Source of the DNA: an uncultured Flavobacterium sp.
GTDB taxonomy: Bacteria > Bacteroidota > Bacteroidia > Flavobacteriales > Flavobacteriaceae
Length of the DNA stretch: 64,000 bases
Direction of reading: 5' to 3'
Assembly (NCBI GenBank): GCA_963509895.1
Contig: CAUPCW010000003.1
Location: 31,575 to 95,574, forward strand
Positions 5,612 to 22,583 of this stretch are shown in pieces (position 1 is the first letter of the stretch; each line of letters starts with the position of its first letter). The notes under the pieces were generated by a model, which was given only the letters and a program-made list of their open reading frames with translations, searched no databases and was not told where the DNA came from. The position numbers and the translations under genes are program-made.

Positions 5612-6730
5612 ATGAAAACAGCCCTTATTACAGGAATTACAGGACAAGACGGGTCGTACTTGGCAGAATTATTATTAGAGAAAGGATATATGGTACATGG
5701 GGTGAAAAGAAGGGCTTCTTCTTTTAATACCCAACGTATAGATCATATCTACCAAGACCAACATGAAGTCCATGTGAATTTTAAATTGCATTATGGAGAC
5801 TTGACGGATTCTACTAATATCATCCGCATCATCCAAGAGGTGCAACCGGATGAAATTTATAATTTAGGAGCCATGAGTCATGTGAAAGTTTCTTTTGATT
5901 CTCCTGAATATGTAGCCAATGTAGACGGTATTGGAACACTTCGTATTCTAGAAGCCGTTCGTATTTTGGGATTGGAGAAAAAAACCCGTATTTACCAGGC
6001 CTCTACTTCAGAATTGTATGGAGGATTGGCTGAAAATAAAAACGCTAAAGGGTTCTATGATGAACAATCGCCTTTTTATCCGCGTTCTCCATATGGAGCG
6101 GCTAAAATATATGGTTTTTGGATTACTAAAAACTATAGAGAGGCCTATGGCATGTTTGCTTGTAATGGAATTTTGTTCAACCATGAATCGCCACGTAGAG
6201 GAGAAACCTTTGTAACTCGTAAAATTACGATGGCCACGGCTGCGATCGCTTTGGGTCAACAAGACTGTTTGTATTTAGGGAATTTGGATGCGCAACGCGA
6301 TTGGGGACATGCCAAAGATTATGTAGAAGCGATGTGGCGTATATTGCAGCAAGAGGTACCTGAGGATTATGTAATTGCTATGGGAGAAACTACTTATGTG
6401 CGTGATTTTGTGCGTATGGCATTTGCCGAAGTAGGTGTTGAAATTGAGTTCAAAGGCGAAGGAGTAGCAGAAAAAGGATATGTGAAGTCTTGTGCGAATC
6501 CTAGTTATCAATTAGAAATTGGAAAGCAAGTAATTGCAGTCGATCCGCAATATTTCCGTCCTACAGAAGTAGATTTGTTGATTGGTGATCCTACGAAGTC
6601 TAAAACCAAACTAGGATGGGTGCCTCAATATGATCTGGCCGGATTGGTAAAAGAGATGATGGAAGGGGATTTGGCGTATTATCAAAAGAAAAAAATGTTG
6701 AGAGAAGCTGGGTTTTCAGTGGAGAACTAA
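5612..6730 (+). CDS. gmd: GDP-mannose 4,6-dehydratase
   Basis: [44 protein letters not shown]. Confidence 0.98.
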
Positions 6731-6794
6731 TAGTCAGTGCTCAGTTTTTGAGTGTTCAGTAGTCGGTTATCAGTTTTCGGGTTTCTGCTGCTAT

Positions 6795-7175
6795 CTTCAG
6801 TTCGATTGATTTTAGGAAGATGCGATAGCTTTTTTTGAAAATGTAGAGACCACGTTTGGCAGTAGTAAGGTTCTCGATATAATTTGAAAAGCTGTCGCAT
6901 TTCAAATCTACTCGAACTGACGATAAGGAAAAACTAGACGATCTCAGATACACAATCGTCAGTTCGAGTGATTTTAGGAAAATGCGGATAGCTTTTTCAT
7001 AAAATTGTATCGAGAACGTTTAGGTTGCAGTAAGGGTTCTCGATACATTTTTTATACCCTTGCTATCGCAGGGCATCAAAAACACTCGAACTGACGCCTC
7101 TATATGATTTGAAAAGCTGTCACATTTCAAATCTACTCGAATTGACGCACTAGTATAACTCTACTCGAACTGACC
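6795..7175. repeat. Cluster of CGTC-tagged palindromic elements (~130-140 bp)
   Basis: Copies at 6795-6922 and 6957-7096 (perfect 14-bp TIR CGTCAGTTCGAGTG; inner 12-bp hairpin TGTATCGAGAAC/GTTCTCGATACA); right-half fragments at 7103-7147 and 7161-7175. Confidence 0.9.
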
Positions 7176-7199
7176 AAATTTGTTAAGAAAAGTAAAAAA

Positions 7200-8132
7200 A
7201 TGAACAAACAAGATAAAATTTATATTGCAGGACACCGCGGGATGGTAGGGTCTGCTATTTTACGAAATTTAGAAGGAGCTGGCTACACTAATTTTGTATT
7301 GCGTACTTCAAGTGAATTGGATTTGCGTAATCAACAAGCAGTCGCTGATTTTTTTGCAGCTGAAAAACCAGATTATGTTTTTTTGGCAGCTGCTAAAGTA
7401 GGCGGGATTATCGCTAATAATACCTATAGAGCCGATTTTATTTATGAGAACATGATGATTCAAAGTAATGTGATTCATCAGGCTTATGCGCATCAAGTGA
7501 AGAAACTGCTATTTTTAGGTTCTTCTTGTATTTACCCAAAGCTAGCACCGCAACCCTTGAAAGAAGACTATTTGTTGACCGGCCTTTTGGAACCGACTAA
7601 TGAACCTTATGCCATTGCTAAGATTGCAGGCATTAAAATGTGTGATGCCTATCGTTCGCAATACGGTTGTAATTTTATTTCAGTGATGCCTACTAATTTG
7701 TATGGCCCTAATGATAATTACGATTTGAACAATTCGCATGTTTTACCTGCCTTGTTGCGAAAATTCATAACCGCTAAAAATTCAGGAGTTCCTACTGTTG
7801 AATTGTGGGGTACAGGAAGTCCAAAAAGGGAATTTTTGCATGCCGATGATTTAGCAGCGGCTTGTGTGTATTTGATGCAGACTTATGAAGCAGAAGGCTT
7901 GGTGAATATTGGAATAGGCGAGGATGTTTCTATCTTAGAGTTAGCGCAATTGGTTCAGAAAATTGTGGGATACACGGGAGTTATCGAAACGGACCCCAGC
8001 AAACCTGATGGGACTCCAAGAAAACTCATGGATGTTTCTAAATTAACAGCCTTGGGTTGGAAAGCTCAAATTTCTTTGGAAGAAGGTATTCAACGGGTGT
8101 ATGGAGAAATTAAGGATAAGGACTGGAGGTAA
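7200..8132 (+). CDS. fcl: GDP-L-fucose synthase
   Basis: [49 protein letters not shown]. Confidence 0.98.
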
Positions 8133-8138
8133 GCGGCG

Positions 8139-8235
8139 GTTTTCAGTTGTCAGTTTTCCGTTGTCAGTTTTCAGTTGTGCAAGGTTCTCGATACACATTA
8201 AATAGCTATCGCAATTTAATGAACTCGAACTGACG
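8139..8235 (+). repeat. GTT(T/G)TC(A/C) heptamer tract followed by the right half of a CGTC element
   Basis: Six heptamers at 8139-8180, then GTTCTCGATACA...ACTCGAACTGACG ending at 8235. Confidence 0.8.
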
Positions 8236-8320
8236 CTTAGGTTGCCCAGTTCATACTTAAGGGAACCCGAGAACATTTTGGAGTATCGTTGGTCTTGATA
8301 TATAGCGTAAAAAATTTTAG

Positions 8321-8351
8321 ACCTTTCAGCTTTTTACAATCTGAAAGGGTT
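8321..8351. repeat. CCTTTCAG...CTGAAAGG hairpin (family with 4 copies in window)
   Basis: Similar hairpins at 14088-14120, 22731-22765 and 37081-37110. Confidence 0.7.
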
Positions 8352-8393
8352 GTTTGTGAATTATAAACTAGTATTTTTTTAATAAAAAAAATA

Positions 8394-9476
8394 ATGCAGC
8401 AAAATAATACCTACGTCCTGATTATGGCAGGCGGTGTGGGGAGTCGATTTTGGCCTAAGAGCAGGAATCACTTTCCGAAACAATTTATCGATATTTTAGG
8501 AACAGGGCAGTCGTTGTTACAAATGACGTATGCCCGTTTTTTACAAATATGCCCTAGTGAAAATATTTATATCTTAAGTAATCAGGGTTATAAAGGCTTG
8601 GTGCTAGAGCAATTGGCAGGAATAGGGGAGGAAAACATCCTTTTAGAGCCTAGCCGTAATAATACAGCGCCATGTATTGCGTATGCTACTTACAAGATTT
8701 TACAACAGAACCCTGTGGCGAATATCGTCGTAGCGCCATCCGATCATTTGATTTTGAAGGAAGCAGCGTTTCTAGATAAAATTACTCAAGCCTTGGCGTA
8801 TACTTCAAAATATGATGCCTTACTCACTTTGGGGATTAGCCCTACACGACCAGATACAGGCTATGGATACATTCATTTTGAACAGGAGGCGATATCGGGT
8901 GTACATATAGTCAATCGCTTTATGGAGAAACCTGTGCTTGAAAAAGCTAAGGAATACCTAGCAAGTGGGGATTATTTGTGGAATGCGGGTATTTTTATTT
9001 GGAGTGCCCAAAGCATACAAAAAGCATTTCAAGCCCATGTGCCAGAAATTGCCAAATTATTTGAACTGGGCAAGCCCTTTTATAACACTCTTGATGAACT
9101 GGGTTTTATTCAGGAAAATTATCCTAAAAGCCCTAACATCTCTATCGACTACGCTATTTTAGAAAAAGCGACGAATGTCTTTACGATTCCTGCTGACATC
9201 GGTTGGAGTGATTTAGGGACTTGGGCGTCTTTGCACGAGGTGTTGCCTAAAGATGCACTTAACAATTCGAAGAGTACTGATCATTTGCATTTAGAAGCGA
9301 CTTCCAATTGTATCATTCATTTGCCGAAGGGAAAAGCAGCTGTCATCAAAGGGTTGGAGGATTTTATTATTGTAGATGATGAAAAAGTACTATTGATTTA
9401 TCCTAAAAGTTGCGAGCAGGAAATTAAGGGGGTTGCTGGAGAGATGGTGAAGGATTTTGGAGCGGGGTATTTGTAG
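8394..9476 (+). CDS. manC: Mannose-1-phosphate guanylyltransferase
   Basis: IMAGGVGSRFWP, PKQF, EPSRNNTAPCI, FMEKP, WNAGIF, WSDLGTW. Confidence 0.96.
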   Translation: MQQNNTYVLIMAGGVGSRFWPKSRNHFPKQFIDILGTGQSLLQMTYARFLQICPSENIYILSNQGYKGLVLEQLAGIGEENILLEPSRNNTAPCIAYATYKILQQNPVANIVVAPSDHLILKEAAFLDKITQALAYTSKYDALLTLGISPTRPDTGYGYIHFEQEAISGVHIVNRFMEKPVLEKAKEYLASGDYLWNAGIFIWSAQSIQKAFQAHVPEIAKLFELGKPFYNTLDELGFIQENYPKSPNISIDYAILEKATNVFTIPADIGWSDLGTWASLHEVLPKDALNNSKSTDHLHLEATSNCIIHLPKGKAAVIKGLEDFIIVDDEKVLLIYPKSCEQEIKGVAGEMVKDFGAGYL

Positions 9477-9477
9477 G

Positions 9478-9589
9478 GTTGTCAGTTGTCGGTTGTCAGT
9501 TGTCGGTTATCAGTTGTCGGTTATCAGTTGTCGGTTATCAGTTATCCGTTATCCGTTATCAGTTATCCGTTATCAGTTATCCGTTATCA
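9478..9589 (+). repeat. 16 x GTT(A/G)TC(A/G/C) heptamer tract
   Basis: Starts 1 nt after the manC stop codon; unbroken 7-nt phase. Confidence 0.95.
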
Positions 9590-9604
9590 GTGGGCAGGTG
9601 CTGT

Positions 9605-9951
9605 CGTCAGACCGAGTGGTTTTAAAAATATGCAGTAGCTTTTTTTGAAAATTGTGTCGATGGTGTTTGATGCATAGAAGGATTCTCAATATAAATTGAA
9701 AAGCTGTCGCGTTTCAATTCTACTCGAACTGAGCCCTAGATCCTTCGATAAAGACTCAAGAGAGACTCAGGACAGGCTTTTGGAGAACTCAAGATGTTTT
9801 CGAAACACGAATCGTCAGACCGAGTGGTTTTAAAAAAATGCGGTAACTTTTTTTTAAAATTGTATCGAGGACGTTTGGATGCACAGAAGGGTTCTCGATG
9901 CATTTTCTATACCCTTGCTATCTCAGGGCATAGAAAACACTCGAACTGACG
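9605..9951. repeat. Two CGTC-tagged palindromic elements upstream of GIY-YIG
   Basis: 9605-9733 and 9813-9951; same architecture as 6957-7096. Confidence 0.88.
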
Positions 9952-9984
9952 GTAGATTTGAACAGTAATTGTTGATAATAATCT

Positions 9985-10277
9985 ATGAAACTTTCCTATG
10001 TTTATATTTTAAAATGCGCTGATGGTAGTTATTATACTGGTGTAACTAGTAATTTAGAACAAAGGCTATTTCGACATAATACTGCTTATTTTCCTGAGAG
10101 CTATACTGCAAGTAGAAGGCCTCTTGAACTCGTTTTTTATTGTGAGTTTACGGATATTACTATAGCAATTGAAAAAGAGAAACAGATTAAAAAATGGTCA
10201 CGAGCCAAAAAGAGGCATTAATTAATGGTGATTTTGAAGCCTTGGTAAATCTGGCCAAGAAAAAGTTCTCGATATGA
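9985..10277 (+). pseudogene. GIY-YIG nuclease family protein, apparently frameshifted near the 3' end
   Basis: YVYILKCADGSYYTGVT, EKQIKKWSRAKK; adding one A to the A5 run at ~10207-10211 gives ...RAKKEALINGDFEALVNLAKKKFSI* ending at 10277, whereas the current ORF stops at 10221. Confidence 0.75.
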
Positions 10278-10354
10278 TTTGAAAAGCTATCGCATTTCAA
10301 ATCTACTCATCTGATTCCTCGATAAAAACTCGGGGCAGGCTCTAATCGCACGAT

Positions 10355-10584
10355 CGTCAGTTCGAGTGATTTTAGGAAAATGCGATAGCTTTTTCATAAA
10401 ATTGTATCGAGAACCTTGGGTGCATTAAAGGTTCTCGATACATTTTAATCGCCTTCGCTATCGCTAGGCAATTAAAACACTCGAACTGACGTACAGGTGT
10501 CGAGAACATTTGGTAGCAGCGTTGTTCTCGATACATTTTCTATACCCTTGCTATTGCAAGGCAGAGAAAACACTCGCGCTGATG
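10355..10584. repeat. CGTC-tagged palindromic elements downstream of GIY-YIG
   Basis: Full copy at 10355-10491 with 14-bp TIR; partial copy at ~10497-10584. Confidence 0.88.
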
Positions 10585-10619: not shown

Positions 10620-11558
10620 ATGATATATATAGTATTCTTTATTGTTCTGCTCTTAGCGGAACTTTTTTATTTTAAAATCGCAGATTGGTCCAATATTATC
10701 GACAAGCCTAATTTGCGCTCTTCGCATACTCAAATTACCTTACGTGGAGGTGGGATTTTGTTTCCTATTGCTGTGGTACTCGGTTTTGGGATGGGGTATG
10801 TGAGTTGGGCTTTGGCCTTGGCTGTTTTATTGGTGGCGGTGGTCAGTTTTGTGGATGATATACGGCCCTTGTCGCAATTGCCGCGTTTGGTAGCACATTT
10901 ATTAGCTATTGGTTTGGTGTTGTATGATTTAGAGCTCATCACCATAGGTTGGTGGTGGTTGCCTGTAGTGACCATTTTGCTCATTGGTTGGATCAATGCG
11001 TTTAATTTTATGGATGGGATCAATGGGATTACGGTCTTGTATGCTTTGGTAAGTCTCGTTTCTTTTCGTTTTTTACCTGAATTGGCTGCTGCTATCCCTA
11101 TGCTCGATGTAATGGGAATAGCCTGTTTGGTATTTGCCTTGTTTAATTTGAGAAAACGCGCTAAAACCTTTGCGGGAGATGTTGGGAGTGTAGCTATGGC
11201 GTTGTTTTTGGGTTATTATATGGTGGAGCTGATTGTCGCTAGCCAACAAATAGGTTATTTGCTTTTCTTTGCCGTTTACGGTATAGATGCGGTACTTACC
11301 ATCATAAATCGCTTACGAAAAAAGGAGAATATACTAGACGCACATCGTTCGCACTTGTATCAGTATTTGGCTAATGAAAAGGGATTGCCTCATGTGGGAG
11401 TGGCTGTCGGGTATGCTGTGATGCAGTTGCTGGTGAATTGTTTTGCGTTTTATTTGATAGAACAAGAGGCTCTGGCTCTAGGTGTTTTTGTATTGATTTT
11501 AGCGGTGATGAGTGTGGTATATTTGGGAGCTCGGTATTGGGCGACGAAAGGGGTTTAA
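10620..11558 (+). CDS. MraY/WecA-like undecaprenyl-phosphate HexNAc-1-phosphate transferase
   Basis: RSSH, RGGGI, VSFVDD, NAFNFMDGINGI, FAGDVGS, HRSHLYQ; multi-pass hydrophobic pattern. Confidence 0.92.
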   Translation: MIYIVFFIVLLLAELFYFKIADWSNIIDKPNLRSSHTQITLRGGGILFPIAVVLGFGMGYVSWALALAVLLVAVVSFVDDIRPLSQLPRLVAHLLAIGLVLYDLELITIGWWWLPVVTILLIGWINAFNFMDGINGITVLYALVSLVSFRFLPELAAAIPMLDVMGIACLVFALFNLRKRAKTFAGDVGSVAMALFLGYYMVELIVASQQIGYLLFFAVYGIDAVLTIINRLRKKENILDAHRSHLYQYLANEKGLPHVGVAVGYAVMQLLVNCFAFYLIEQEALALGVFVLILAVMSVVYLGARYWATKGV

Positions 11559-11562
11559 TAGG

Positions 11563-11743
11563 TTAATTGTTTAAGGTTATTTAAAATTGTTTAATCGGTT
11601 AACTGTTTAATCGGTTAATTGTGTGGTTGTTTAAAATTGTTTAACTGTTTAATTGTTTAACTGTTTAATTGTTTAACTGTTGGGGTTGTGTAAAAAATTA
11701 AGCTTTAACCGCGAAGGTCGTAAAGGATTACACAAGGTTCGCT
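11563..11743 (+). repeat. TTAA(T/C)(T/C)G(T/G) octamer tract followed by TTAACCGC-AAG motif
   Basis: Octamers at 11563-11680; motif at 11705-11743. Confidence 0.85.
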
Positions 11744-11805
11744 ACCATACATTCTAATTTAATAAATCCAAACTATACGTAACCAAGATACGATTACGGT
11801 TATCA

Positions 11806-11834: not shown

Positions 11835-12065
11835 TTTTGAAGAAAGATAATGTGAGTTTACGTTTTGTTTAAGCGCTAAAGAGAACCGAGAACAAGGCTT
11901 TATTGATACAAAGTCTCTCGACTGTACTTCGACTTCGTTCAGCATAAACTACTCGAGGTGACAATCAAAGGTAGAAGATAGAAGATAGAAGGTAGAGGTT
12001 AGACGTGGTAGGCAGTTAACAATGTACAGGAAAGTTCAGTTAGAATAAAAAGATAAGAAAATAAT

Positions 12066-12503
12066 ATGGGAGCTATAGTGAAACAACCTAGGCTAATAGA
12101 AGGGGGTATTCATACCGATCATAGAGGGCAAATTTCGTTTGTCAACGGAATGGTCTTTGACGCCATTGTTCGGTTTTATATTATTAGTAATTCGGAGGAG
12201 CAATCGTTGCGTGCATGGCAAGGACATCGCATAGATAATAAGTATTTTTATTGTGTGCAAGGTTCGATCAGAGTGCATTTTGTTAAAGTGGACCACTGGG
12301 AATCCCCTTCGAAAGACTTACCTGTGCAAAGTGTTTTGCTTTCGGCTAACGAAAGTAAAGTGTTGCACATACCAGAAGGCTATGCTAATGCCATTGAGTC
12401 CTTGGAAGTGGGTTCGAAATTGATTTCTTTTTCGACTTTGTCGCTTGACAGGACTTCGGAAGATGATGTACGGTTTCCGGTAGATACGTGGAAGGTTGTT
12501 TAA
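12066..12503 (+). CDS. Cupin-fold sugar epimerase/isomerase (WxcM/FdtA-like)
   Basis: HTDHRG, RAWQGH, YFYCVQG, LHIPEGYA; RmlC-like cupin pattern. Confidence 0.8.
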   Translation: MGAIVKQPRLIEGGIHTDHRGQISFVNGMVFDAIVRFYIISNSEEQSLRAWQGHRIDNKYFYCVQGSIRVHFVKVDHWESPSKDLPVQSVLLSANESKVLHIPEGYANAIESLEVGSKLISFSTLSLDRTSEDDVRFPVDTWKVV

Positions 12504-12802
12504 AAGGTTAATCGGTTAATTGTTTAATCGTTTAAAAGTTTAAATTTTAACCGCAAGGGACGCAAAGAATTACGTAAATGTTCGCTAGGAAAAATATGCA
12601 ACTACATGTAAACAAGATTCTATTGGGGGTTTTCAGTTGTCTGTTTTTAGTTATTGGTTATCGTTTGTCGGTTTCTGTTCTCGGTTTTCTGTTAGGGAGT
12701 ATTGATTTTGATAGACGATTGCAACTATAGGGATCATTATTGTGATGAAGTAAAACAAATTTGTTTATTACTTTTAAGTTTCTATTTTTTAAATTTTCGT
12801 TT

Positions 12803-13633
12803 ATGACAAAGCATCAAGCCTTACAGTTATTTGAAGAAAAAAATGTAAGAACCCTTTGGGATTCTGATCAAGAACAATGGTATTTTTCTATTGTAGACAC
12901 GATTGCTGTTTTGACAGAAAGTGTTGATGCTCCTGCGTATTGGAGAAAATTAAAGCAAAGGCTTAAGGCAGAGGGGAATGAAACCGTGACGAATTGTCAC
13001 GCTTTGAAAATGAAAGCTTCTGATGGAAAAATGCGAATGACCGATGTAGCGGATACCGAGCAGCTTTTTCGATTGATTCAATCTATTCCTTCGCCAAAAG
13101 CAGAGCCTTTTAAACTTTGGTTGGCACAAGTGGCTTCGGATCGATTGGACGAAATGCAGGATCCTGAGCTTTCTATTGATAGGGCTTTAGCGCGCTATTT
13201 GCAATTGGGTTATTCGGCAAACTGGATTAACCAAAGGCTGAAAAGCATTGAGGTACGCAAAGAACTAACAGACGAATGGAAAAAAAGGGGGCTAAAAGAA
13301 GGAGTGCAATTTGCTACACTAACGGACATCATCACCAAAGCCTGGTCGGATAAAACAACTAAAGAATACAAGGTTTTGAAAGGGTTGAAAAAGGAAAACC
13401 TGCGTGACAATATGACGAATACAGAATTGATTCTGAATATGCTTGCGGAGGCTTCCACTAAAGATATTTCTCAGGCTGTAAATCCTGAAACTTTTGAAGC
13501 CAATCAATTAGTGGCACAGCAAGGAGGCAACGTTGCCAAAGTGGCTTTGAAAGAGTTGGAAGCTAAAACAGGAAAAAAAGTAGTAACGGCATTGAATGCC
13601 AAATCGCTGGATCAACTGAAATCTGAAGAATAG
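12803..13633 (+). CDS. BRO-N domain (phage antirepressor-like) protein
   Basis: VRTLWD..QEQWYFSIVD, YWRKLKQRL, ASDGKMRMTD, IPSPKAEPFKLWLA; in-frame ATG at 12803 preferred over the track TTG. Confidence 0.85.
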   Translation: MTKHQALQLFEEKNVRTLWDSDQEQWYFSIVDTIAVLTESVDAPAYWRKLKQRLKAEGNETVTNCHALKMKASDGKMRMTDVADTEQLFRLIQSIPSPKAEPFKLWLAQVASDRLDEMQDPELSIDRALARYLQLGYSANWINQRLKSIEVRKELTDEWKKRGLKEGVQFATLTDIITKAWSDKTTKEYKVLKGLKKENLRDNMTNTELILNMLAEASTKDISQAVNPETFEANQLVAQQGGNVAKVALKELEAKTGKKVVTALNAKSLDQLKSEE

Positions 13634-13715: not shown

Positions 13716-13895
13716 ATGGCAGGGTACCTAGGAATGGTTGGGTTTGATTATAATCGAAGCCTACCGGAGTACCATTTGGATTTTGATTCCGTAGCGACTA
13801 CCTTTTATTTAGGTTCAACTACTACAACCGAACAAGTAACCGAACAAGTACAGGTACTGATTCAGTTATCGGTTATCGGTTATCAGTTTGTTTAA
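13716..13895 (+). pseudogene. Short remnant carrying a TEQVTEQV linker; possible decayed HATPase_c_4- or Fic-type gene
   Basis: Manual translation MAGYLGMVGFDYNRSLPEYHLDFDSVATTFYLGSTTTTEQVTEQVQVLIQLSVIGYQFV*; its 3' end runs into a heptamer tract. Confidence 0.4.
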
Positions 13896-14130
13896 TTGGT
13901 TAATGGTTTAAAAGTTTAAGGTTTAACCGGAAAATTTCTAGGGTAAATTCCAATTTTTAAAATTCCAAAAGGGTAACCGCTAAGAAGCAGGAAGGCAAAG
14001 TTTTTTAGGAGGGATTGCCACGAATTCACGAATTGTAATTTGAAATGCTGTGTGTTTGAATGGCAACGAATGCATAATTTTTTTTATACCCTTTCTGAGT
14101 TTTGGACTCTGAAAGGGTTTTTTATTGGGG

Positions 14131-14992: not shown

Positions 14993-15136
14993 GTTATCAG
15001 TTGTCGGTTATCAGTTGTCTGTTATCGGTTATCAGTTATCGGTTGTCGCTTATCAGTTAATGGTTTAAGGTGGTTTAAGGTTGTTTAAAATTGTTTAAAG
15101 GTTTAAAAGTTTAAGCTTTAATTGCGAGGTTCGCTG
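14993..15136 (+). repeat. Heptamer tract, then octamer tract, then TTAATTGCGAGGTTCGCT motif
   Basis: Nine heptamers at 14993-15055; octamer-like units to ~15118; motif at 15119-15136. Confidence 0.8.
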
Positions 15137-15199
15137 GTGTAAATTGCAATTAATACATTTCCAAATTCACAATGTCGGTTTTTATCACTTTTGGTTTTC

Positions 15200-15241
15200 G
15201 TTCCTTTTCCACCCTTTAGGTAGCGGTAAGGGAAAAGGAAC
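15200..15241. terminator. 11-bp-stem hairpin, possible terminator or structural element
   Basis: GTTCCTTTTCC / GGAAAAGGAAC with a 20-nt loop. Confidence 0.4.
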
Positions 15242-15388
15242 AATTCTTTGTCACATCAAGTTCAATCAATAGGTTGTAAAGGATTCTTGGTATCGTTTAA
15301 AATGATACTACAGTAATCAATTCAACAGTTAACCGATTCAACAATTAACCAATTCAGTGATTGACCTTTCATTTCTTAAATAAAAATA

Positions 15389-15396
15389 TAAATTTG
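15389..15396 (+). promoter_or_regulatory. Bacteroidota -7 promoter element (TAnnTTTG)
   Basis: TAAATTTG just upstream of the rfbC ATG; very close to the start codon, so uncertain. Confidence 0.4.
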
Positions 15397-15400
15397 TAGC

Positions 15401-15949
15401 ATGAATAAAGAAGAAACATTTATTAAAGATTTAGTAGTCCTTACACCAGACGTTTTTGAAGATGCTCGTGGGTATTTTTTTGAAGGCTATAATAAAAACA
15501 AGTTCAGTGCCCTTGGCATCGATATTGATTTTGTACAAGACAATCAGTCGTTTTCCCAAAGAGGCACTTTAAGAGGTTTGCATTATCAAAATCCACCGTT
15601 TGCACAAACTAAGTTAGTTCGGGTGTTGCAAGGGGAGATTATGGATGTGGCTGTCGATTTGAGAAAAGACTCCCCGACCTACGGACAGCATTTTGGCATT
15701 AAATTAACGGCCGAAAATAAAAAACAATTGTTAGTGCCTCAGGGTTTTGCTCATGGCTTTTCGGTCTTGAGTGAAACGGCGGTGGTGTTGTATAAATGTG
15801 ATCAGTTTTATAACAAAGCCAGTGAAGGTGGGATTCGTTTTGATGATCCTACGTTAAACATTGATTGGGGAATGGATTTAGCAGCAGTGATTGTATCTGA
15901 AAAGGATTTGGTTTTACCTGATTTCGCTAATTGCAATAGTGAGTTTTAG
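15401..15949 (+). CDS. rfbC: dTDP-4-dehydrorhamnose 3,5-epimerase
   Basis: DARGYFFE, FVQDNQS, RGLHYQ, QTKLVRV, DVAVDLR, PQGFAHGF. Confidence 0.97.
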   Translation: MNKEETFIKDLVVLTPDVFEDARGYFFEGYNKNKFSALGIDIDFVQDNQSFSQRGTLRGLHYQNPPFAQTKLVRVLQGEIMDVAVDLRKDSPTYGQHFGIKLTAENKKQLLVPQGFAHGFSVLSETAVVLYKCDQFYNKASEGGIRFDDPTLNIDWGMDLAAVIVSEKDLVLPDFANCNSEF

Positions 15950-15965
15950 GAAATGAGGTTAATCG

Positions 15966-16112
15966 GTTGTCAGTTATCGGCTATCAGTTATCGGTTGTGA
16001 GTTATCAGTTGTGAGTTATCAGTTGTGAGTTATCAGTTGTGAGTTATCAGTTGTGAGTTATCAGTTGTGAGTTATCAGTTGTTAGTTATCGGTTATCAGT
16101 TGTGGGTTATCA
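15966..16112 (+). repeat. 21-heptamer tract containing a perfect (GTTGTGAGTTATCA)x6
   Basis: Perfect 14-mers at 15994-16077. Confidence 0.95.
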
Positions 16113-16211
16113 GTTAATTGTTGTTTGCTACTTTTAGTGTTAAGTCTATTTTGTATGTTGTGATATACAAAAAATATTTAATTTTGTATATTTTAGTAAG
16201 CGAAATAAATA

Positions 16212-16219
16212 TATATTTG
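16212..16219 (+). promoter_or_regulatory. Bacteroidota -7 promoter element
   Basis: TATATTTG 18 nt upstream of ATG 16238. Confidence 0.5.
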
Positions 16220-16237
16220 TGTAGTTAACTATGTATT

Positions 16238-17434
16238 ATGGAAGATTTATTTAGAAAATACACCAATAAGTTACAACGAGTCGAAACTAATTTTGTTAGG
16301 AGTTTAATTCATGATGTCAATTGGAATGCTCGTCTAATTGGAATTAAAGGCGCTAGAGGGGTAGGGAAAACAACGCTACTGCTGCAGTATATGAAGCTTA
16401 ATTTTAGTGATCAATTGGAGGAGTCGTTATACGTTAGTTTAGACACCTTTGGATTTAAAGATAGGACTTTAGTTGGTTTAGCAGATGAGTTTGTAAGAAA
16501 TGGAGGAAAGTACCTTTTTTTGGATGAAGTTCATAAGTATGAAAATTGGGCACAGGAACTAAAAAATATTTATGATGACCATGCTGAGTTAAAAGTAGTG
16601 TTTACAGGCTCTTCGCTATTGGAAATATTGAATGCTCGGGCTGATTTGAGTAGAAGGGCAATAGTTTATTATATGCAAGGGCTCTCCTTTAGGGAATATC
16701 TTGAAATGGAAACAGGGCAAAAGTTCGACAAAGTATCGTTGGAAGCTATATTGAACAATCATCTGAAGATTGCGACACAGATCAATAGTAAGGTAAAGCC
16801 CTTTCAGTATTTTGAAAGTTATTTGAAGTATGGATATTATCCTTTTTATAAAGAAGATAAGGATTTGTATGAGCAACGGTTGGAAGAGGTTATCAATATG
16901 ATGCTTGAAATTGAGTTGCCTTTATTGAGGGGTGTTGAAGTGGGTTTGGTTCCAAAAATCAAGCAATTGTTAGCTATTATCTCTGAATCCGTTCCTTTTA
17001 TCCCTAATGTGAGTAATTTAAGTCATAAAATCGGCGTAAATAGAGCTACTATGATGACCTATTTGCATTATTTAGAAGAAGTAGGTCTGACTATAAACTT
17101 GCAAAAAGAGGCAAAAGGAACTGTGAAATTGCAAAAACCTGCTAAAATTTATTTAGAAAACACCAACCTAATGTTTGTTCTTTCTTCGTCAAAAGCAAAT
17201 ATTGGTAACGCAAGAGAAACTTTTTTCACCAATCAATTAGGGTATAAAAATAAGTTGAAACATCACGAAAAAACTGATTTTTTTGTAAATGACTTATACA
17301 CTTTCGAGATTGGAGGTAAGGATAAATCCAGAAAACAAATTGAAGGCATTGAAAACGCTTTTATTGTTGTAGACAATATTGAATATGGTTTTCAAAACAA
17401 AATACCACTATGGTTGTTTGGTTTTTTGTATTGA
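16238..17434 (+). CDS. AAA+ ATPase (AAA_14) with DUF4143-type C-terminal domain
   Basis: Walker A GARGVGKT, Walker B LFLDEVH, FTGSS, DLSRR, GYYPF, KIYLENTNL. Confidence 0.88.
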   Translation: MEDLFRKYTNKLQRVETNFVRSLIHDVNWNARLIGIKGARGVGKTTLLLQYMKLNFSDQLEESLYVSLDTFGFKDRTLVGLADEFVRNGGKYLFLDEVHKYENWAQELKNIYDDHAELKVVFTGSSLLEILNARADLSRRAIVYYMQGLSFREYLEMETGQKFDKVSLEAILNNHLKIATQINSKVKPFQYFESYLKYGYYPFYKEDKDLYEQRLEEVINMMLEIELPLLRGVEVGLVPKIKQLLAIISESVPFIPNVSNLSHKIGVNRATMMTYLHYLEEVGLTINLQKEAKGTVKLQKPAKIYLENTNLMFVLSSSKANIGNARETFFTNQLGYKNKLKHHEKTDFFVNDLYTFEIGGKDKSRKQIEGIENAFIVVDNIEYGFQNKIPLWLFGFLY

Positions 17435-17439
17435 TTTCG

Positions 17440-17557
17440 GTTGTCAGTTATCGGTTATCAGTTATCGGTTGTCAGTTATCAGTTATCGGTTGTCAGTTGT
17501 CAGTTGTGAGTTATGGGGTGGTTATAGTATTGTAATTTAACCGCAAAGTTCGCAAAG
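17440..17557 (+). repeat. 11-heptamer tract followed by TTAACCGCAAAGTTCGCAAAG motif
   Basis: Heptamers at 17440-17516; motif at 17537-17557. Confidence 0.9.
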
Positions 17558-17671
17558 TTGCATAGGTAAGTAGTGCTTGTTGAAATGGATGGGATAGATA
17601 GTACTTGATTTACTTAGCCCTTTATCATTACTGGCTGCTAATCACTAATTACTAAGTACTAAAATAAACAT

Positions 17672-18535
17672 ATGAAAAAAATACTAGTTACGGGCTCGAA
17701 TGGACAATTGGGTTCTGAGTTGAGGGTAATGTCAAATACTTATACTCAATTTCATTGGGATTTTACTGATAGGGCAACACTGAATTTATCTGATTTAGAG
17801 GGATTGGTTACTGTTTTGTCGAATAGTCAACCGGAGTATATCATCAATTGCGGGGCTCATACTGCGGTAGATCGTGCTGAATCCGAGTTGGAACTGGCCG
17901 ATGTTTTGAATCATCGAGCGGTTGCTGTATTGGCCAAATGGTGTACTGAGAACAATTGTAAGTTGATCCATATTTCTACCGATTATGTTTTTGATGGCAC
18001 GGCAGCTACTCCTTTAACGGAGTCCGCTCTTACGGGTCCGATTAACGTCTATGGACAAACGAAACTAGCGGGAGAGTTGGCTTGTTCTAAGGAATGTCCT
18101 ACCGGTATCATTATCAGAGCTTCATGGGTGTATTCAAGTTTTGGTGCTAATTTCGTAAAGACGATGTCGAAGTTGATGCAAGAAAGAGATACCTTGAATG
18201 TGGTCAACGATCAAATTGGTAGCCCAACTTATGCGGCAGACTTAGCACAAGCCATTATGACCATTCTTACTCATCCCAATTGGCAATCGGGTATCTATCA
18301 TTTTTCTAATGAAGGCGAAATCAGTTGGTATGAATTTGCTCTAGCTATCCAAGAAATTGGCGAATTTGATTGCAAAGTAAGTGGTATTCCAACTTCGGCA
18401 TATCCGACTCCAGCGAAACGTCCACAGTATTCTTTATTGGATAAAAGTAAAATTAAAGCTACTTTTGGAGTGATTGTTCCGGAATATAGGGAGAGTTTGA
18501 TTGCATGCATGAGGCAATTAATTAACACGAATTAA
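17672..18535 (+). CDS. rfbD: dTDP-4-dehydrorhamnose reductase
   Basis: LVTGSNGQLG, HISTDYVFDG, YGQTKLAGE, DQIGSPT, PAKRP. Confidence 0.97.
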   Translation: MKKILVTGSNGQLGSELRVMSNTYTQFHWDFTDRATLNLSDLEGLVTVLSNSQPEYIINCGAHTAVDRAESELELADVLNHRAVAVLAKWCTENNCKLIHISTDYVFDGTAATPLTESALTGPINVYGQTKLAGELACSKECPTGIIIRASWVYSSFGANFVKTMSKLMQERDTLNVVNDQIGSPTYAADLAQAIMTILTHPNWQSGIYHFSNEGEISWYEFALAIQEIGEFDCKVSGIPTSAYPTPAKRPQYSLLDKSKIKATFGVIVPEYRESLIACMRQLINTN

Positions 18536-18559
18536 AAACGAATTTTACGAATTGTGCTA

Positions 18560-18949
18560 ATGGATAAAATACTTTTTAAGGAAGAGAGCTTTAAAATTAT
18601 TGGTGCTTGTATGAAAGTACATCGTACATTAGGAGCTGGATTTTTGGAGGCGGTTTATGAGGAAGCTTTGGCAAAAGAATTTTTAATCCAAAATATTCCT
18701 TTTAAGAGGCAGCTGAAATTGGAATTGTATTATGAAAAGGAGAAATTGAATAAACATTATAGAGCAGATTTTGTTTGCTATGATACTATTATTTTAGAAA
18801 TAAAAGCAGTACGGCATATTCCAGATGTGTTTTCTGCACAGTTGAGAAATTATTTAAAATGTACTTCTATGGAATTGGGTATGCTGATTAATTTTGGTAC
18901 ATCCTCATTAAATTATAAAAGAATAATTAATTTGAAAAATTCGGATTAA
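18560..18949 (+). CDS. GxxExxY protein (PD-(D/E)XK nuclease-like fold)
   Basis: [39 protein letters not shown]; in-frame ATG at 18560. Confidence 0.92.
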
Positions 18950-18969
18950 TTCGTAAAATTAGAATACCT

Positions 18970-19839
18970 ATGAAAGGAATAATACTAGCCGGTGGATCCG
19001 GTACTCGTTTGCATCCGTTAACACTTGCGATGAGCAAGCAGATGATGCCGGTTTATGATAAGCCAATGATTTATTATCCGTTGTCGACCTTGATGTTGGC
19101 GGGGATTCATGAAATATTGATTATTTCGACTCCTCACGACTTGCCCAATTTTAAAAAATTATTGGGTGATGGGAGTCAAATTGGGTGTCAATTCAGCTAT
19201 GCTGAGCAAGCAATTCCCAATGGACTAGCGCAAGCTTTTGTGATTGGGGAAGACTTTATCGGTGCGGATTCGGTTGCCTTAGTTTTGGGAGATAACATTT
19301 TCTTTGGGGCGAATATGCATGAGTTGTTGCAATCGAATACGAATCCAGAAGGAGGTGTAGTTTTTGCGTATCATGTTTCGGATCCTGAACGTTATGGGGT
19401 GGTGGAGTTTGATAAAGACCAAAATGCCCTTTCTATTGAAGAAAAGCCATTGGAACCCAAATCTAATTTTGCTGTTCCGGGATTGTATTTTTATGATAAT
19501 TCGGTAGTGGAAATTGCCAAAAACATTCAGCCTAGTGCTAGAGGTGAATATGAAATTACAGATGTGAACAAAGTGTATTTGGCACAAGGAAAACTAAAAG
19601 TGGGTATTCTAAGTAGAGGAACCGCTTGGTTGGATACGGGTACTTTTTCCAGTTTGATGCAAGCGGGTCAATTTGTGCAAGTACTAGAAGAACGTCAAGG
19701 ATTAAAAGTAGGTTGTATTGAAGAAATTGCTTGGCGACAAGGCTTTATTTCTGATGCTGAATTAAAAGCTATCGCGGAACCTTTGCGTAAATCGGGTTAT
19801 GGTGACTATTTGTTGGGCTTGTTGAAGCAAACGATGTAG
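18970..19839 (+). CDS. rfbA: Glucose-1-phosphate thymidylyltransferase
   Basis: [39 protein letters not shown]-like [15 protein letters not shown]. Confidence 0.98.
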
Positions 19840-19846
19840 GTTTTTG

Positions 19847-19944
19847 GGTGTTAGGTGATAGGTGTTGGGTAATAGGTTTTAGGTGTTGGGTAATAGGTTT
19901 TGGGTAATAGGTTTTAGGTCTTGGGTAATGGGTGTTGGGTTAGT
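19847..19944 (+). repeat. 14 x GGT(N)(A/T)T(A/G)-type heptamer tract
   Basis: ggtgtta ggtgata ggtgttg ggtaata ...; reverse-complement type of the 55970-56102 tract. Confidence 0.9.
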
Positions 19945-20024
19945 GGTTTTTATAAATAGTTAACGATTTTATCATTATCCGTAAAACAAGTAATCAATTG
20001 ATTAGCAAAACGATTTATAAGTTA

Positions 20025-20527
20025 AACAATTCACCCGAATAATAAGTAATCAATTCAAAAAATAACCAATACAACGACTAAACGGTTAAACGATTAATCA
20101 TTTCGACGATTAACCATTTGAACAATTCACCCGAAAAGCAAGTAATCAATTCAAAAAGTAACTAGCACAACGATTAAACGGTTAAACGATTAACCCTTTC
20201 AACGATTAAACGGTTAAACGATTAATCATTTCGACGATTAACCATTTGAACGATTCACCCGAAAAGCAAGTAATCAATTCAAAAAGTAACTAGCACAACG
20301 ATTAAACGGTTAAACGATTAATCATTTCGACGATTAACCATTTGAACGATTCACCCGAAAAGCAAGTAATCAATTCAAAAAGTAACCAGCACAACGATTA
20401 AACGGTTAAACGATTAATCATTTCGACGATTAACCATTTGAACAATTCACCCGAAAAATAAGTAATCAATTCAAAAAGTAACCAGCACAACGATTAAACG
20501 GTTAAACGATTAACCCTTTCAACGATT
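20025..20527. repeat. Tandem array of ~5 copies of a 96-bp unit (one copy carries a 32-bp insert)
   Basis: ATTCACCCG anchors at 20029, 20125, 20253, 20349, 20445 (spacings 96, 128, 96, 96). Confidence 0.93.
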
Positions 20528-20639
20528 ACCAGTTAATCAGCAATAAATACCACTGGTAGGATATATTAACATTTTTCTTGTCCATGCTTTCCCAATAATT
20601 TGTATTTTTGTTTTAATTAATTTATAAAGAAATTCTATT

Positions 20640-22583
20640 TTGAGTACAGCTACACAAAATTTTTTCTCTAGGGCGAATCTGAAATTTAATATCCATAATC
20701 TGAGTTATTTGCCTAGGTGGATTATAGTGGTGATGGATGCCATGGTGCTTAATGTCTCTTTTTTCTTTACGGTCCTGATTTTTAAAGGGACAGGTTTAGA
20801 ATATATACTTACCCCGCATTACTTGATTTACATCTGTTTATTGATGGCGGTAAATGTGTTTTTCTTTTGGTTGTTTCGAACTTATTCGGGAATCATTCGG
20901 CACTCTTCTTATATTGATGCTGTAAAGTTGTTGTTTTCTCAGTTGGCAGTATTGGTGGTTTTTTTGATAGGTAACTTTTTTTATGAAATAAGTACGGGAG
21001 AGAAAGCAATCTTAAATACGGCTTTATTTATTAATATCGTACTTTCTTTTTGTGGGTTGTTTTTGTACCGAGTAGTGGTAAAACAGACTTTCGAGTTGTA
21101 TTTTTCAGACAAGGGTACCAATAAACTAATCCGTACGATTATTTATGGAACAGATGCGAATGCCATTTCAGTAGCCAATGCTTTGAAATTTGAAACCCCA
21201 ACTCGATTTAAGATAGTAGGTTTTGTGGACAAGAATAATTTGAACTCTAATAAGCGAATGTTGGATTTGCCTATATTGATTCAAAAGAAAAAGTTACCCA
21301 CTTTAATGCGTTCCGTTGGAGCAGAAGCCATTATTATTGCCGACAAGTCTTTGACTAAAGAAGAACAATTATTGATTGTAGATAAGTGTTTAGAGTATAA
21401 TTATCGTGTGTATACCGTACCTTTGATATCGAATTGGGAAAACCAAAAAGAAATTTCTGACAAGGTAAAAAACATACAGATTGAAGACCTTTTGGAACGA
21501 AATCCTATTATTTTGGATAATAAAACGATTTCTAAGGATTTAAAAGAAAAAACGATTATGATTACGGGTGCGGCCGGTTCCATAGGGAGTGAAATTGTGC
21601 GCCAAGTGATTCATTTTAAGCCCGAAGCTATTGTTTTAGTTGATCAAGCGGAAACTCCTTTACATCAGCTAACGCTTGAGTTGGGAGAAATTGTTACTGA
21701 AACCAAATTGCATAGTGTGATTGCGGATGTTCGTAACAAAGAAGTGATGAAAAGAGTTTTCAAAGAGTTTCAGCCCCAAGTGGTGTATCATGCCGCGGCC
21801 TACAAGCATGTGCCTTTGATGGAAGATAATCCCGCACAAGCCATACAAACCAATGTAGAAGGTACCAAAAACGTAGCAGATTTAGCTTGTGAATTTAGAA
21901 CCAAAAAATTTGTTATGGTCTCAACCGATAAGGCTGTTAATCCTAGCAATGTAATGGGGGCAAGTAAGCGTATTGCTGAAAAATATGTACAATCGTTACA
22001 GTTGAGAAGCATCAAGGAAAATAACGGAAAGGGGACTAAATTTATTACGACCCGTTTTGGGAATGTATTAGGGTCTAACGGCTCCGTAGTGCCTTTGTTT
22101 ACTAAACAAATTGCAGCTGGTGGACCTGTAACTATTACCCATCAAGATATTATTCGTTATTTTATGACGATACCCGAAGCTTGTCAGTTGGTGCTAGAAG
22201 CAGGATCTATGGGAAAAGGAGGGGAAATCTATATTTTTGACATGGGGAAACCGGTTAAGATAATCGATTTAGCTCGCAAAATGATCAAATTGGCTGGGTT
22301 TATTCCTGATAAAGATATTCCGATAAAAATTGTGGGTTTGCGTCCAGGTGAGAAATTATATGAAGAGTTATTAAATGACACCTCTAAAACAATTCCAACC
22401 TATCATGAAAAAATTATGATTGCTGAGGAAATTCAAGAGGAATTCGAAAGCTTGCATATTGAAATTGAGGAACTCATCGGCATGTCGCCTTTCTTTGGCA
22501 ATGATGATATAGTAGGCAAAATGAAAAAAATTGTCCCTGAGTTTAAAAGCATGAATTCTACCTATCAGTTCTTGGATAAATAA
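20640..22583 (+). CDS. CapD/WbpM/PglF-like nucleoside-diphosphate sugar epimerase/dehydratase
   Basis: N-terminal TM segments, IEDLLER, ITGAAGSIGSE, HAAAYKHVP, STDKAVNP, RFGNVLGSNGSV, RPGEKLYEEL. Confidence 0.95.
   Translation: MSTATQNFFSRANLKFNIHNLSYLPRWIIVVMDAMVLNVSFFFTVLIFKGTGLEYILTPHYLIYICLLMAVNVFFFWLFRTYSGIIRHSSYIDAVKLLFSQLAVLVVFLIGNFFYEISTGEKAILNTALFINIVLSFCGLFLYRVVVKQTFELYFSDKGTNKLIRTIIYGTDANAISVANALKFETPTRFKIVGFVDKNNLNSNKRMLDLPILIQKKKLPTLMRSVGAEAIIIADKSLTKEEQLLIVDKCLEYNYRVYTVPLISNWENQKEISDKVKNIQIEDLLERNPIILDNKTISKDLKEKTIMITGAAGSIGSEIVRQVIHFKPEAIVLVDQAETPLHQLTLELGEIVTETKLHSVIADVRNKEVMKRVFKEFQPQVVYHAAAYKHVPLMEDNPAQAIQTNVEGTKNVADLACEFRTKKFVMVSTDKAVNPSNVMGASKRIAEKYVQSLQLRSIKENNGKGTKFITTRFGNVLGSNGSVVPLFTKQIAAGGPVTITHQDIIRYFMTIPEACQLVLEAGSMGKGGEIYIFDMGKPVKIIDLARKMIKLAGFIPDKDIPIKIVGLRPGEKLYEELLNDTSKTIPTYHEKIMIAEEIQEEFESLHIEIEELIGMSPFFGNDDIVGKMKKIVPEFKSMNSTYQFLDK

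Follow-up and report, generated by a model that had tools for sequence, protein, structure and literature searches.

Single accessory genes, set among repeats, occupy the spaces between conserved sugar genes in a surface-polysaccharide locus of an uncultured Flavobacterium sp., and interspecies sequence comparison indicates that they have been gained, lost and moved between species at an integrase-free hotspot in one branch of the genus. The locus lies on the 98-kb contig CAUPCW010000003.1 (C3) of a metagenome-assembled genome (GCA_963509895.1, 3.5 Mb in 187 contigs), of which a stretch of 64,000 nt, the window, was analysed; coordinates without prefix refer to the window and those prefixed C3: to the contig. 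The studied interval (5612-20640) is the conserved nucleotide-sugar end (GDP-fucose/mannose, dTDP-rhamnose and UDP-sugar genes) of a Flavobacterium surface-polysaccharide super-locus, and loci of this kind are main targets of phages and recombination. An initial annotation of the sequence had given the order gmd, CGTC repeats, fcl, manC, GIY-YIG, wecA-like, wxcM-like, BRO-N, TEQV remnant, reverse-strand pseudogene, rfbC, AAA-DUF4143, rfbD, GxxExxY, rfbA, 96-bp array and capD-like, and Pfam/NCBIfam profile searches confirmed every gene named there. The explanation we favour overall, although with no better than even confidence, is a branch-specific sink at the junctions of the locus, receiving both mini-genes enclosed in repeat arms and larger stand-alone genes, and turned over by recombination.

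The inserts are regarded as derived because other Flavobacterium species hold a tight rfbC-rfbD-rfbA-capD block. Among the relatives compared, with one genome per species, the rfbC-rfbD gap is ≤15 nt in 17 of 19 sampled other species of the genus, and four genomes (G012, G015, G008 and G001) have a compact rfbC-rfbD-rfbA-capD arrangement with spacers of 2-157 nt and no tracts, the complete order in G012 being gmd-fcl-wecA-wxcM...rfbC-rfbD-rfbA-capD-ABC2. Since these compact relatives have no tracts at the junctions, the tracts arrived with or after the inserts. Genome G390 keeps the same backbone (manC-GIY-wecA-wxcM-rev-rfbC-rfbD-rfbA-capD, rev being the reverse-strand gene) without BRO, AAA or GxxExxY. 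The rfbC|rfbD junction contains AAA here, a BRO pseudogene in G011 and repeats only in Flavobacterium sp. RSSA_27 and in G390; in RSSA_27 the AAA gene (93% aa identity) lies upstream of rfbC, not downstream, and the rfbD|rfbA spacer likewise holds repeats only. Gene-free, repeat-only junctions of this kind correspond to the empty slots that the initial annotation had suspected. BRO occurs in other species at gmd|fcl and AAA|rfbD, and the GIY-YIG gene at gmd|fcl, fcl|manC, manC|wecA and rfbD|rfbB, whereas orthologs of the reverse gene hold the same relative position in G006 (44%) and G390 (65%). The association of AAA and BRO with polysaccharide loci extends across genera. As annotated, the contig lacks an integrase: a PF00589 search of the whole genome returned four tyrosine recombinase matches, none of them on C3.

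The AAA gene provides the clearest record of exchange. Two nested features describe it:

16147-17451, plus strand: AAA cassette, ~90 nt of operator/promoter repeats and the open reading frame (ORF); block shared with RSSA_27 at 86.8%
16238-17434, plus strand: AAA_14+DUF4143 ORF (profile match; PADLOC PDC-S01, E 8e-24)

AAA occupies the rfbC|rfbD junction in at least nine other genomes of a one-genome-per-species scan (F. yafengii, TH-M1, F. micromati, F. gawalongense, ZT3R18, ZB4P13, F. rhamnosiphilum, F. laiguense and UBA5153), with rfbD confirmed as following it in eight of the nine, all but UBA5153. An early reading of the gene as a recent private insertion, drawn from 24 relatives, was rejected on this basis. 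The spacers flanking AAA are unrelated between species, being composed of heptamers of other motifs (TTTAGAA, GGTGAGAAGTTAGA), hairpin elements or extra ORFs, and TH-M1 has zero heptamer units before the gene and three after it. The stable unit is the ORF together with ~90 nt of operator-like repeats carrying a conserved TAnnTTTG box. Pairwise nucleotide identities resolve two allele classes: class B genes are 97.5-98% identical among four species, against 65-83% for rfbC, 68-83% for rfbD and 82-91% for rfbA, and TH-M1 and F. laiguense, whose flanks are 81-89% identical, nevertheless carry AAA genes of different classes (70%). Along the alignment, identity rises from ~60-70% to 97-100% inside the operator repeats and falls at the stop codon; directly outside the block it is 35-70%, so that, for AAA, the one insert analysed in this way, no flank co-conversion was detected, and the neighbouring TTTAGAA heptamer tract lies outside the exchanged block. 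Because class B identity is far above that of the flanks and steps at the operator repeats and stop codon, comparison of these alleles indicates that AAA has been exchanged horizontally between species as a gene-sized unit in a fixed slot, a pattern more readily reconciled with gene conversion of a resident copy than with homing or with recombination through the tracts. The initial annotation had proposed alignment across relatives as a check, expecting breakpoints inside the tracts: the inserts do vary at fixed junctions, but the edges of the AAA block are unrelated to the tracts.

The region upstream of AAA (16147-16237; orthologous loci L055-L076) contains two to three ~33-nt units (TTTTGTATAG...TATACAAAA palindromes) and the TAnnTTTG box in all species, and from its sequence looks like an autoregulated promoter travelling with the gene. 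More distant orthologs lie within or at the end of polysaccharide loci of metagenomic Flavobacterium and Psychroflexus, where neighbours were recognised with a small query panel only. In one such Flavobacterium locus (L051/L052, 9615-12693), a 109-aa fragment and a full-length copy of a Bac_transf sugar transferase gene flank an AAA ortholog together with a DUF1016/YhcG nuclease gene, as if insertion had duplicated part of the target gene. Metagenomic contigs with close AAA orthologs are mostly 1.3-2.5 kb, barely exceeding the gene, which suggests that assembly-breaking repeats flank AAA in many populations. In this genome the arrangement is well supported, as Logan contigs from three independent runs matched 15001-20162 at 99.98-100%, and exact-protein look-ups returned short contigs of the same population only, confirming the assembly with zero new variants.

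The second line of evidence is a gene-in-arms architecture, which is best developed around the GIY-YIG gene:

6793-7175: two complete ~140-nt palindromes (6793-6922, 6955-7096) and two partial right halves, ORF-less copies between gmd and fcl
9603-9951: two palindromic elements (9603-9733, 9811-9951) 5' of GIY-YIG
9985-10221, plus strand: GIY-YIG gene of 78 aa, catalytic domain only (Pfam PF01541, E 5e-17)
10265-10584: right half-element, one complete element (10353-10491) and one partial element 3' of GIY-YIG

All nine genome copies of the palindrome core ACTCGAACTGA are at this locus, around the GIY-YIG gene. In each ~140-nt element a basal stem pairs CGTCAGTTCGAGTG with CACTCGAACTGACG, a central stem pairs TGTATCGAGAAC with GTTCTCGATACA, and two side hairpins complete a predicted four-way junction, with z-scores against shuffled sequences of -5.4 and -10.1 for the 6793-7096 elements and -11.3 for the 3' element. 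Both long stems are invariant across species, and one side hairpin shows compensatory changes. The half-element pattern was found in 152 of 401 genomes of the genus, against two matches for a reversed control pattern, and a reading of the palindromes as private to this locus was accordingly rejected; relatives carry scattered copies (up to 28 pattern matches per genome), and those of this genome are confined to one locus. Among 30 GIY-YIG ortholog loci (70-91% identity), the ORF lies between left- and right-arm cores in 29 and has the right arm alone in one, its position being the apical loop of the central stem. The repeat is present in 44/46 genomes with a GIY-YIG ortholog and in 108/355 without one (Fisher P 2e-18). 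Given this placement of the ORF between the arms and the genus-wide co-occurrence, the CGTC repeats of the initial annotation are, to judge from their sequence, ORF-less copies of the GIY-YIG-bearing element. No Rfam family reached its gathering threshold, and weak ctRNA and miRNA matches on the palindromes were dismissed as chance.

GxxExxY forms a smaller cassette with arms of its own:

18524-18960, plus strand: GxxExxY mini-cassette, with a left arm of ACGAATT x3 at ~10-nt spacing, the ORF and a right arm AATTCG/AATTCGT
18554-18949, plus strand: GxxExxY (PDDEXK_3) ORF (TIGR04256, E 2e-41)

The ACGAATT arm supplies the last codons and the stop codon of rfbD, and homology with RSSA_27 stops at 18498. 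The same arms surround the gene in G011. GxxExxY lies directly 5' of rfbA here and in TH-M1, G011, G006, F. yafengii, F. micromati and F. gawalongense (73-90% aa identity), diverges more than rfbA does, and by this pattern appears to be a long-term resident stably linked to rfbA; where a species lacks it, the rfbD|rfbA site is taken by a short spacer or a heptamer microsatellite. AAA, in the same slot in at least nine other genomes, and GxxExxY thus depart from the presence/absence variation that the initial annotation had predicted for the inserts. Seven GxxExxY paralogs (28-50% identity) occur elsewhere in this genome, five of them with short iterons of their own (CACAGATT, CGCAGATT, CGCGGAT and CTTTGCG among the types), arranged in four cases as an inverted pair. 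ORF-less arrays of these paralog iteron types fill empty junctions of G390 and RSSA_27.

A third family, four-helix-bundle genes (PF05635), links the architecture to the simple tracts. All seven such genes with full context lie inside inverted short-period arms, between housekeeping genes; the arm motif differs from cassette to cassette (GGGTGTT, GTTATGA, octamers and others), and the left arm adjoins the stop codon of the gene before it. The interval 5612-20640 holds no PF05635 gene and solo tracts only. Approximately 11 kb upstream of the window start, however, inverted heptamer tracts at C3:19590-19687 (forward) and C3:20236-20347 (reverse) enclose a truncated four-helix-bundle gene. This gene is directly 5' of a NusG/UpxY-like gene (C3:20360-20830), and a second inverted tract pair (C3:23878-23940 and C3:24462-24615) encloses hairpin repeats only; by analogy, the position of inverted tracts near a NusG/UpxY-like gene recalls the invertible promoters of Bacteroides capsule loci.

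The tracts of the interval, all of which were present where initially annotated, are as follows:

8139-8178, plus strand: heptamer tract abutting the fcl stop, then a solo right half-element of the palindrome (8184-8235)
9478-9591, plus strand: heptamer tract, GTTRTCR x16 by TRF, starting 1 nt past the manC stop
11553-11744, plus strand: octamer array GTTTAAYN (11553-11681) abutting the WecA-like stop, then a TTTAACCGCGAAG... iteron box to 11744 (families D6, D17)
12628-12693, plus strand: heptamer tract, preceded by an octamer array (12498-12544) and an iteron box
13865-13926, plus strand: heptamer tract (13865-13888) and octamer array (13890-13926), tail of the TEQV remnant
14993-15114, plus strand: heptamer tract (14993-15058), then octamer array (15061-15114)
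15962-16124, plus strand: heptamer tract with the 14-nt unit GTTATCAGTTGTGA
17437-17516, plus strand: heptamer tract abutting the AAA stop codon
19844-19940, plus strand: heptamer tract, GGTGTTR/GGGTAAT, abutting the rfbA stop
20025-20528, minus strand: 96-bp-period array of reverse-orientation octamers (AACGATTA), right-arm type (TRF 96 nt x3.4, 96% match)

Their enrichment is far above chance, with 16 of the 27 GTTRTCR heptamer tracts of the 3.5-Mb genome falling within C3:16.5-49 kb (expected 0.25; P about 1e-23), and short-period tracts of all kinds are 5x denser in the region, covering 5.4% of bases versus 0.57% elsewhere. About half of the tracts start ≤12 nt past the upstream stop codon, with a G-rich, C-poor sense strand. 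Genome-wide, the sense strand is G-rich in stop-abutting tracts (39:12) and C-rich in the others (31:57), exactly the polarity that paired arms predict. The motifs of the interval (GTTRTCR, GGTGTTR/GGGTAAT, and GTTTAAYN with its reverse in the 96-bp array) belong to four-helix-bundle arm families: GGTGTTR/GGGTAAT is the family of the cassette arms on contig C26, and the 96-bp array is complementary to the forward octamer arrays (repeat families I1-I5). By motif and polarity, both the heptamer and the octamer tracts resemble the arms of four-helix-bundle mini-cassettes. They also lengthen in place, the rfbD|rfbA site holding two GTTATCN units in G390 and ten in RSSA_27. The GTTATCAGTTGTGA tract on the 3' side of rfbC is unique to this genome among those compared, the site elsewhere having no tract or another motif, and the tract at 17437-17516 is spanned without indel by an independent contig from one sequencing run.

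Further repeats recur around these loci. Hairpins of the form TTTTCGTTTTGCCCC...AAAGGGAGCCGAAAA and boxes of CCTCTCGACTGCGCTCGAAGTGACA constitute two small families found across species, with sites in the window (11880-11962), at C3:16770-16850 and C3:24050-24460 and in the L056 and L072 spacers, some copies lying within heptamer tracts. Right-arm-type reverse heptamer tracts occur at 35943-36024 and 55970-56105 (CATAACT; CCCAACA/CACCCAATACCTAA), with motifs common to four-helix-bundle arms on contigs C76 and C26. A 102-bp tandem repeat of 2.3 copies (43502-43733) contains a long TCGAGCGCAGTCGAG...CTCGACTGCGCTCGA palindrome.

Several alternative explanations bear on the same observations. The initial annotation had cast the tracts and palindromes as landing and recombination pads, ectopic recombination between similar microsatellite or palindrome tracts moving single genes in and out without damage to the operon. 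As it claimed, same-orientation GTTRTCR tracts lie on both sides of AAA and of the reverse gene, repeat-only junctions occur at the same sites in relatives, and, compared with RSSA_27, the extra rfbC|rfbD DNA consists of tract, AAA and tract with its outer edges at the tract ends; small hairpin elements that in F. rhamnosiphilum and F. yafengii interrupt a heptamer tract continuous in strain ZB4P13 are a further, limited point in its favour. We nevertheless consider this mechanism not supported and very unlikely, given that the AAA block is edged by operator repeats and a stop codon with the TTTAGAA tract outside it, that the nearly tract-free AAA slot of TH-M1 has no tract on the rfbC side and other species have unrelated motifs, that the junctions of compact relatives are tract-free, and that a tract grows in place at an empty site. 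GxxExxY is moreover bounded by ACGAATT arms and not by heptamers, and the palindromes are arms of the GIY-YIG gene and its ORF-less copies rather than neutral pads. Nuclease-driven homing, in which small nuclease genes would spread by cutting insert-free alleles of their junction and being copied into them, with specificity provided by the nuclease, would account for the nuclease folds in three of the four intact inserts (GIY-YIG, PDDEXK_3 and DUF4143; PMC3424549), for their strict placement between conserved genes and variability among relatives, and for the retention of AAA in one slot despite flanks only 66-68% identical, which a site-specific process would explain. It is unlikely, however, because a 98%-identical AAA block was exchanged without co-conversion of its flanks, the 78-aa GIY-YIG protein is reduced to its catalytic domain, with no domain for binding DNA, and BRO and GIY-YIG occupy many different junctions.

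A regulatory reading holds that tracts and hairpins are kept for their action on the transcript, as processing stems like those of rRNA intervening sequences, C-poor Rho-avoiding spacers, all-frame stop pads or length-variable tuning elements, and that the inserts are polysaccharide regulators rather than selfish genes. The start of about half the tracts just past a stop codon with a G-rich, C-poor sense strand, the capacity of inverted arms to pair around small ORFs, the difference in tract length at one site between species and the ties of AAA and BRO to polysaccharide loci across genera are all in keeping with it; yet tract motif, length and presence are not conserved between species at any junction, most of the genus does without tracts and the polarity is equally predicted by paired cassette arms, which together leave this reading quite unlikely. 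Least probable of all, in our judgement, is that spacers opened by ancient insertions simply gathered slippage repeats, with vertical descent and differential loss alone at work. In keeping with neutral decay, none of the inserts has a recent paralog in the genome, the link of GxxExxY to rfbA is stable and its divergence exceeds that of rfbA, one pseudogene and one remnant ORF are present and a microsatellite has grown in place, but this reading conflicts with AAA genes that reach 98% identity between species with flanks at 65-83%, with allele classes incongruent with flank relatedness, with the relocation of AAA in RSSA_27, with the genus-wide co-occurrence of the palindromes and the GIY-YIG gene and with the family specificity of the arms.

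Under the favoured explanation, a junction sink turned over by recombination, the intergenic junctions of the sugar locus would have become, in one branch of the genus, the destination of two kinds of passenger. The first would be tiny genes in family-specific inverted arms, accompanied by many ORF-less arm copies, namely GIY-YIG in its four-way-junction palindrome, GxxExxY in ACGAATT iterons and, just upstream of the window, the four-helix-bundle gene in inverted heptamers. Repeat-filled junctions would then be mostly arms and arm debris, with the simple tracts also lengthening by slippage. The second kind would comprise stand-alone genes with their own promoters, the AAA+ ATPase fused to a PD-(D/E)XK-type DUF4143 and the BRO-N protein. 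Turnover may proceed mainly by homologous recombination or gene conversion after interspecies DNA transfer, producing gene-sized mosaic blocks, so that alleles of AAA would be exchanged without the gene leaving the rfbC|rfbD slot, and the armed mini-elements probably multiply locally via their own nuclease, by analogy with the copying of REP (repetitive extragenic palindromic) sequences via the RAYT (REP-associated tyrosine transposase) gene. More speculatively, the three co-resident families (GIY-YIG, GxxExxY and four-helix-bundle) may represent a single undescribed class of integrase-free mini-element that settles directly after a host stop codon, is copied with the aid of its own product and leaves ORF-less arms behind, a unification we put forward tentatively and think rather doubtful.

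A number of observations weigh against this explanation. Nearly all solo tracts of the interval have the left-arm orientation, whereas random decay of paired arms predicts otherwise. No recent second copy of any insert was found in this genome by tblastn, in which BRO-N and GIY-YIG are single-copy, so active transposition here is unsupported. Gene conversion of AAA requires a resident copy and leaves its first arrival and the RSSA_27 relocation unexplained. The comparisons are between species only and catch no gain or loss event with exact breakpoints, and in a genome of 187 contigs exact tract lengths may be imprecise. Finally, AAA and BRO match candidate anti-phage families, but the defence labels derive from PADLOC candidate families only (PDC-S13 and PDC-S01), no validated anti-phage system was found at the locus and a defence role for the inserts is conjectural.

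The remaining genes and features of the interval are listed below:

5612-6730, plus strand: gmd, GDP-mannose 4,6-dehydratase (Pfam PF16363, E 6e-147)
7200-8132, plus strand: fcl, epimerase/reductase of GDP-fucose synthase type (Pfam Epimerase, E 2e-63; 80% identity to the gmd-adjacent gene of G012)
8394-9476, plus strand: manC, mannose-1-phosphate guanylyltransferase type (Pfam NTP_transferase, E 8e-38)
10620-11558, plus strand: GT4/WecA-like initiating transferase (Pfam PF00953)
12066-12503, plus strand: WxcM/FdtA-like cupin (weak Pfam matches; orthologs 57-88% identical, same position in relatives)
12803-13633, plus strand: BRO-N gene, true start 12803 (Pfam Bro-N; PADLOC PDC-S13, E 5e-136)
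13717-13926, plus strand: remnant ORF ending TEQVTEQV and running into heptamer/octamer tracts
14134-14964, minus strand: gene of a 277-aa Flavobacterium family, one in-frame TAA at 14836-14838
15401-15949, plus strand: rfbC, dTDP-4-dehydrorhamnose 3,5-epimerase (Pfam, E 2e-72)
17672-18535, plus strand: rfbD, dTDP-4-dehydrorhamnose reductase (Pfam, E 6e-95)
18970-19839, plus strand: rfbA, glucose-1-phosphate thymidylyltransferase (Pfam, E 6e-71)
20640-22583, plus strand: CapD-like UDP-sugar 4,6-dehydratase (Pfam PF02719, E 3e-119)
8321-8359, 14089-14127 and 22733-22771: terminator-like hairpin with a T run (CCCTTTCNG...CNGAAAGGG), from repeat search and sequence (family D18)

The reverse-strand pseudogene of the initial annotation is real, with its one in-frame TAA, and the TEQV remnant yielded no family match. 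The insert types also agree with the initial description of small nuclease or defence genes, in that DUF4143 and PDDEXK_3 are PD-(D/E)XK families (PMC3424549) and BRO and AAA fall in the PADLOC candidate families; PADLOC gave no match for GIY-YIG, GxxExxY or the reverse gene, NCBIfam put a name to GxxExxY only, and PDB sequence searches with the AAA and BRO proteins returned zero matches. A single operon is doubtful because the terminator-like hairpin recurs at 8321, 14089 and 22733, and on this evidence the locus is probably not one operon; a generic terminator scan missed these repeated CCCTTTC hairpins, and a sigma-70 promoter scan did not exceed shuffle expectation, the sigma-70 model being uninformative for Bacteroidota.

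The interval follows a Wzx/Wzy-type polysaccharide locus at C3:10-35 kb, recognised by gene size and homology and containing putative Wzc and Wza-like proteins, UDP-glucose dehydrogenases, rfbB, the NusG/UpxY-like gene, a flippase and glycosyltransferases, and it runs into an ABC-transporter-type locus. Low-GC (26-29%) stretches with few tracts, at 25000-29500 and at C3:25.7-35 kb (the latter with glycosyltransferase and flippase genes), form the variable cores of both polysaccharide loci, while tracts and inserts cluster among the conserved genes for sugar nucleotides and export. Directly 5' of gmd is a deaminase + HATPase_c_4 fusion gene (3856-5355) with weak PADLOC matches to Argonaute-associated and SIR2 models, and duplicated TTGGACA palindromes (5361-5494) separate the two genes. 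In G390, rfbC (contig C8, locus L165, about 17631-18088) aligns as two pieces with ~20 residues missing around a T run and may be disrupted.

Together, these findings indicate that conserved sugar genes can carry recurring nuclease and defence-candidate passengers for long periods, with an AAA+/PD-(D/E)XK gene swapped between species at a fixed slot, and that a GIY-YIG gene is tied genus-wide to a family of structured palindromic repeats. The match of the tracts to the arms of small gene cassettes offers a concrete and testable origin for them. According to a survey (PMC6344855), heptamers are the commonest of the intergenic periodic repeats and have no known function; if the armed mini-gene reading is true, arms of this kind would explain much of the so far unexplained abundance, in prokaryotic intergenic DNA, of tandem heptamers and other short-period repeats, a question noted in the same survey. 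Literature searches on GxxExxY, DUF4143, Flavobacterium O-antigen repeats, GIY-YIG palindromes and intervening-sequence proteins in polysaccharide loci did not find this architecture described, nor the partnership of GIY-YIG gene and palindrome.

Comparison with known systems places the locus between several of them. Intergenic heptamers, such as the short tandemly repeated repetitive sequences of cyanobacteria and those surveyed in PMC6344855, and phase-variable tracts share its strand-polar 7-nt spacer repeats of differing length between relatives, but here the repeats are concentrated in one locus and share motifs with four-helix-bundle cassette arms. As in defence islands and integration hotspots, a variable region subject to horizontal exchange gathers candidate defence and nuclease genes, whereas the genes here are interleaved singly with conserved biosynthetic genes and have no mobile-element backbone or validated defence system. 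Integron cassettes and clusters of attC sites lacking an integrase likewise consist of single-gene units, mostly in one orientation, separated by imperfect palindromes; in this locus, however, the palindromes enclose the ORF instead of following it, the units alternate with housekeeping genes and AAA has its own promoter-like box. The ends CGTCAGTTCGAGTG and CACTCGAACTGACG lack attC-type cores and GTTRTCR misfits GTTRRRY, as judged without a dedicated attC model, and with no integrase on the contig and no attC-like sites the integron reading was rejected. Free-standing homing endonuclease genes of T-even phages (Seg/Mob, 'intronless homing') also place small nuclease genes, GIY-YIG included, between intact conserved genes and vary among relatives, unlike the present case in host (here a bacterial chromosome), in the lack of AAA flank co-conversion, in a GIY-YIG protein without a DNA-binding domain and in the existence of arms without an ORF. 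ORF-bearing 23S rRNA intervening sequences, with their four-helix-bundle 'S23p' genes, provide the precedent of a small gene between pairable inverted arms, the arrangement of the PF05635 family here, although the present cassettes lie between protein-coding genes and not in rRNA.

By analogy of organization, the closest known analogue of the GIY-YIG element is the REP/RAYT system (REPtrons), with a different nuclease. REP/RAYT and miniature inverted-repeat transposable elements combine, as does this element, a family of short structured intergenic palindromes, a single small nuclease gene flanked by inverted repeat copies and co-occurrence of gene and repeat; the nuclease here is, however, a 78-aa GIY-YIG protein and not an HUH/Y1 (IS200/IS605-type) transposase, and the repeat unit of ~140 nt folds into a four-way junction and has all its copies in one locus of this genome. 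If the three armed families do form one class of mini-element, the GIY-YIG element would be its REP/RAYT-like member, relying on another nuclease and on a DNA substrate shaped as a four-way junction.

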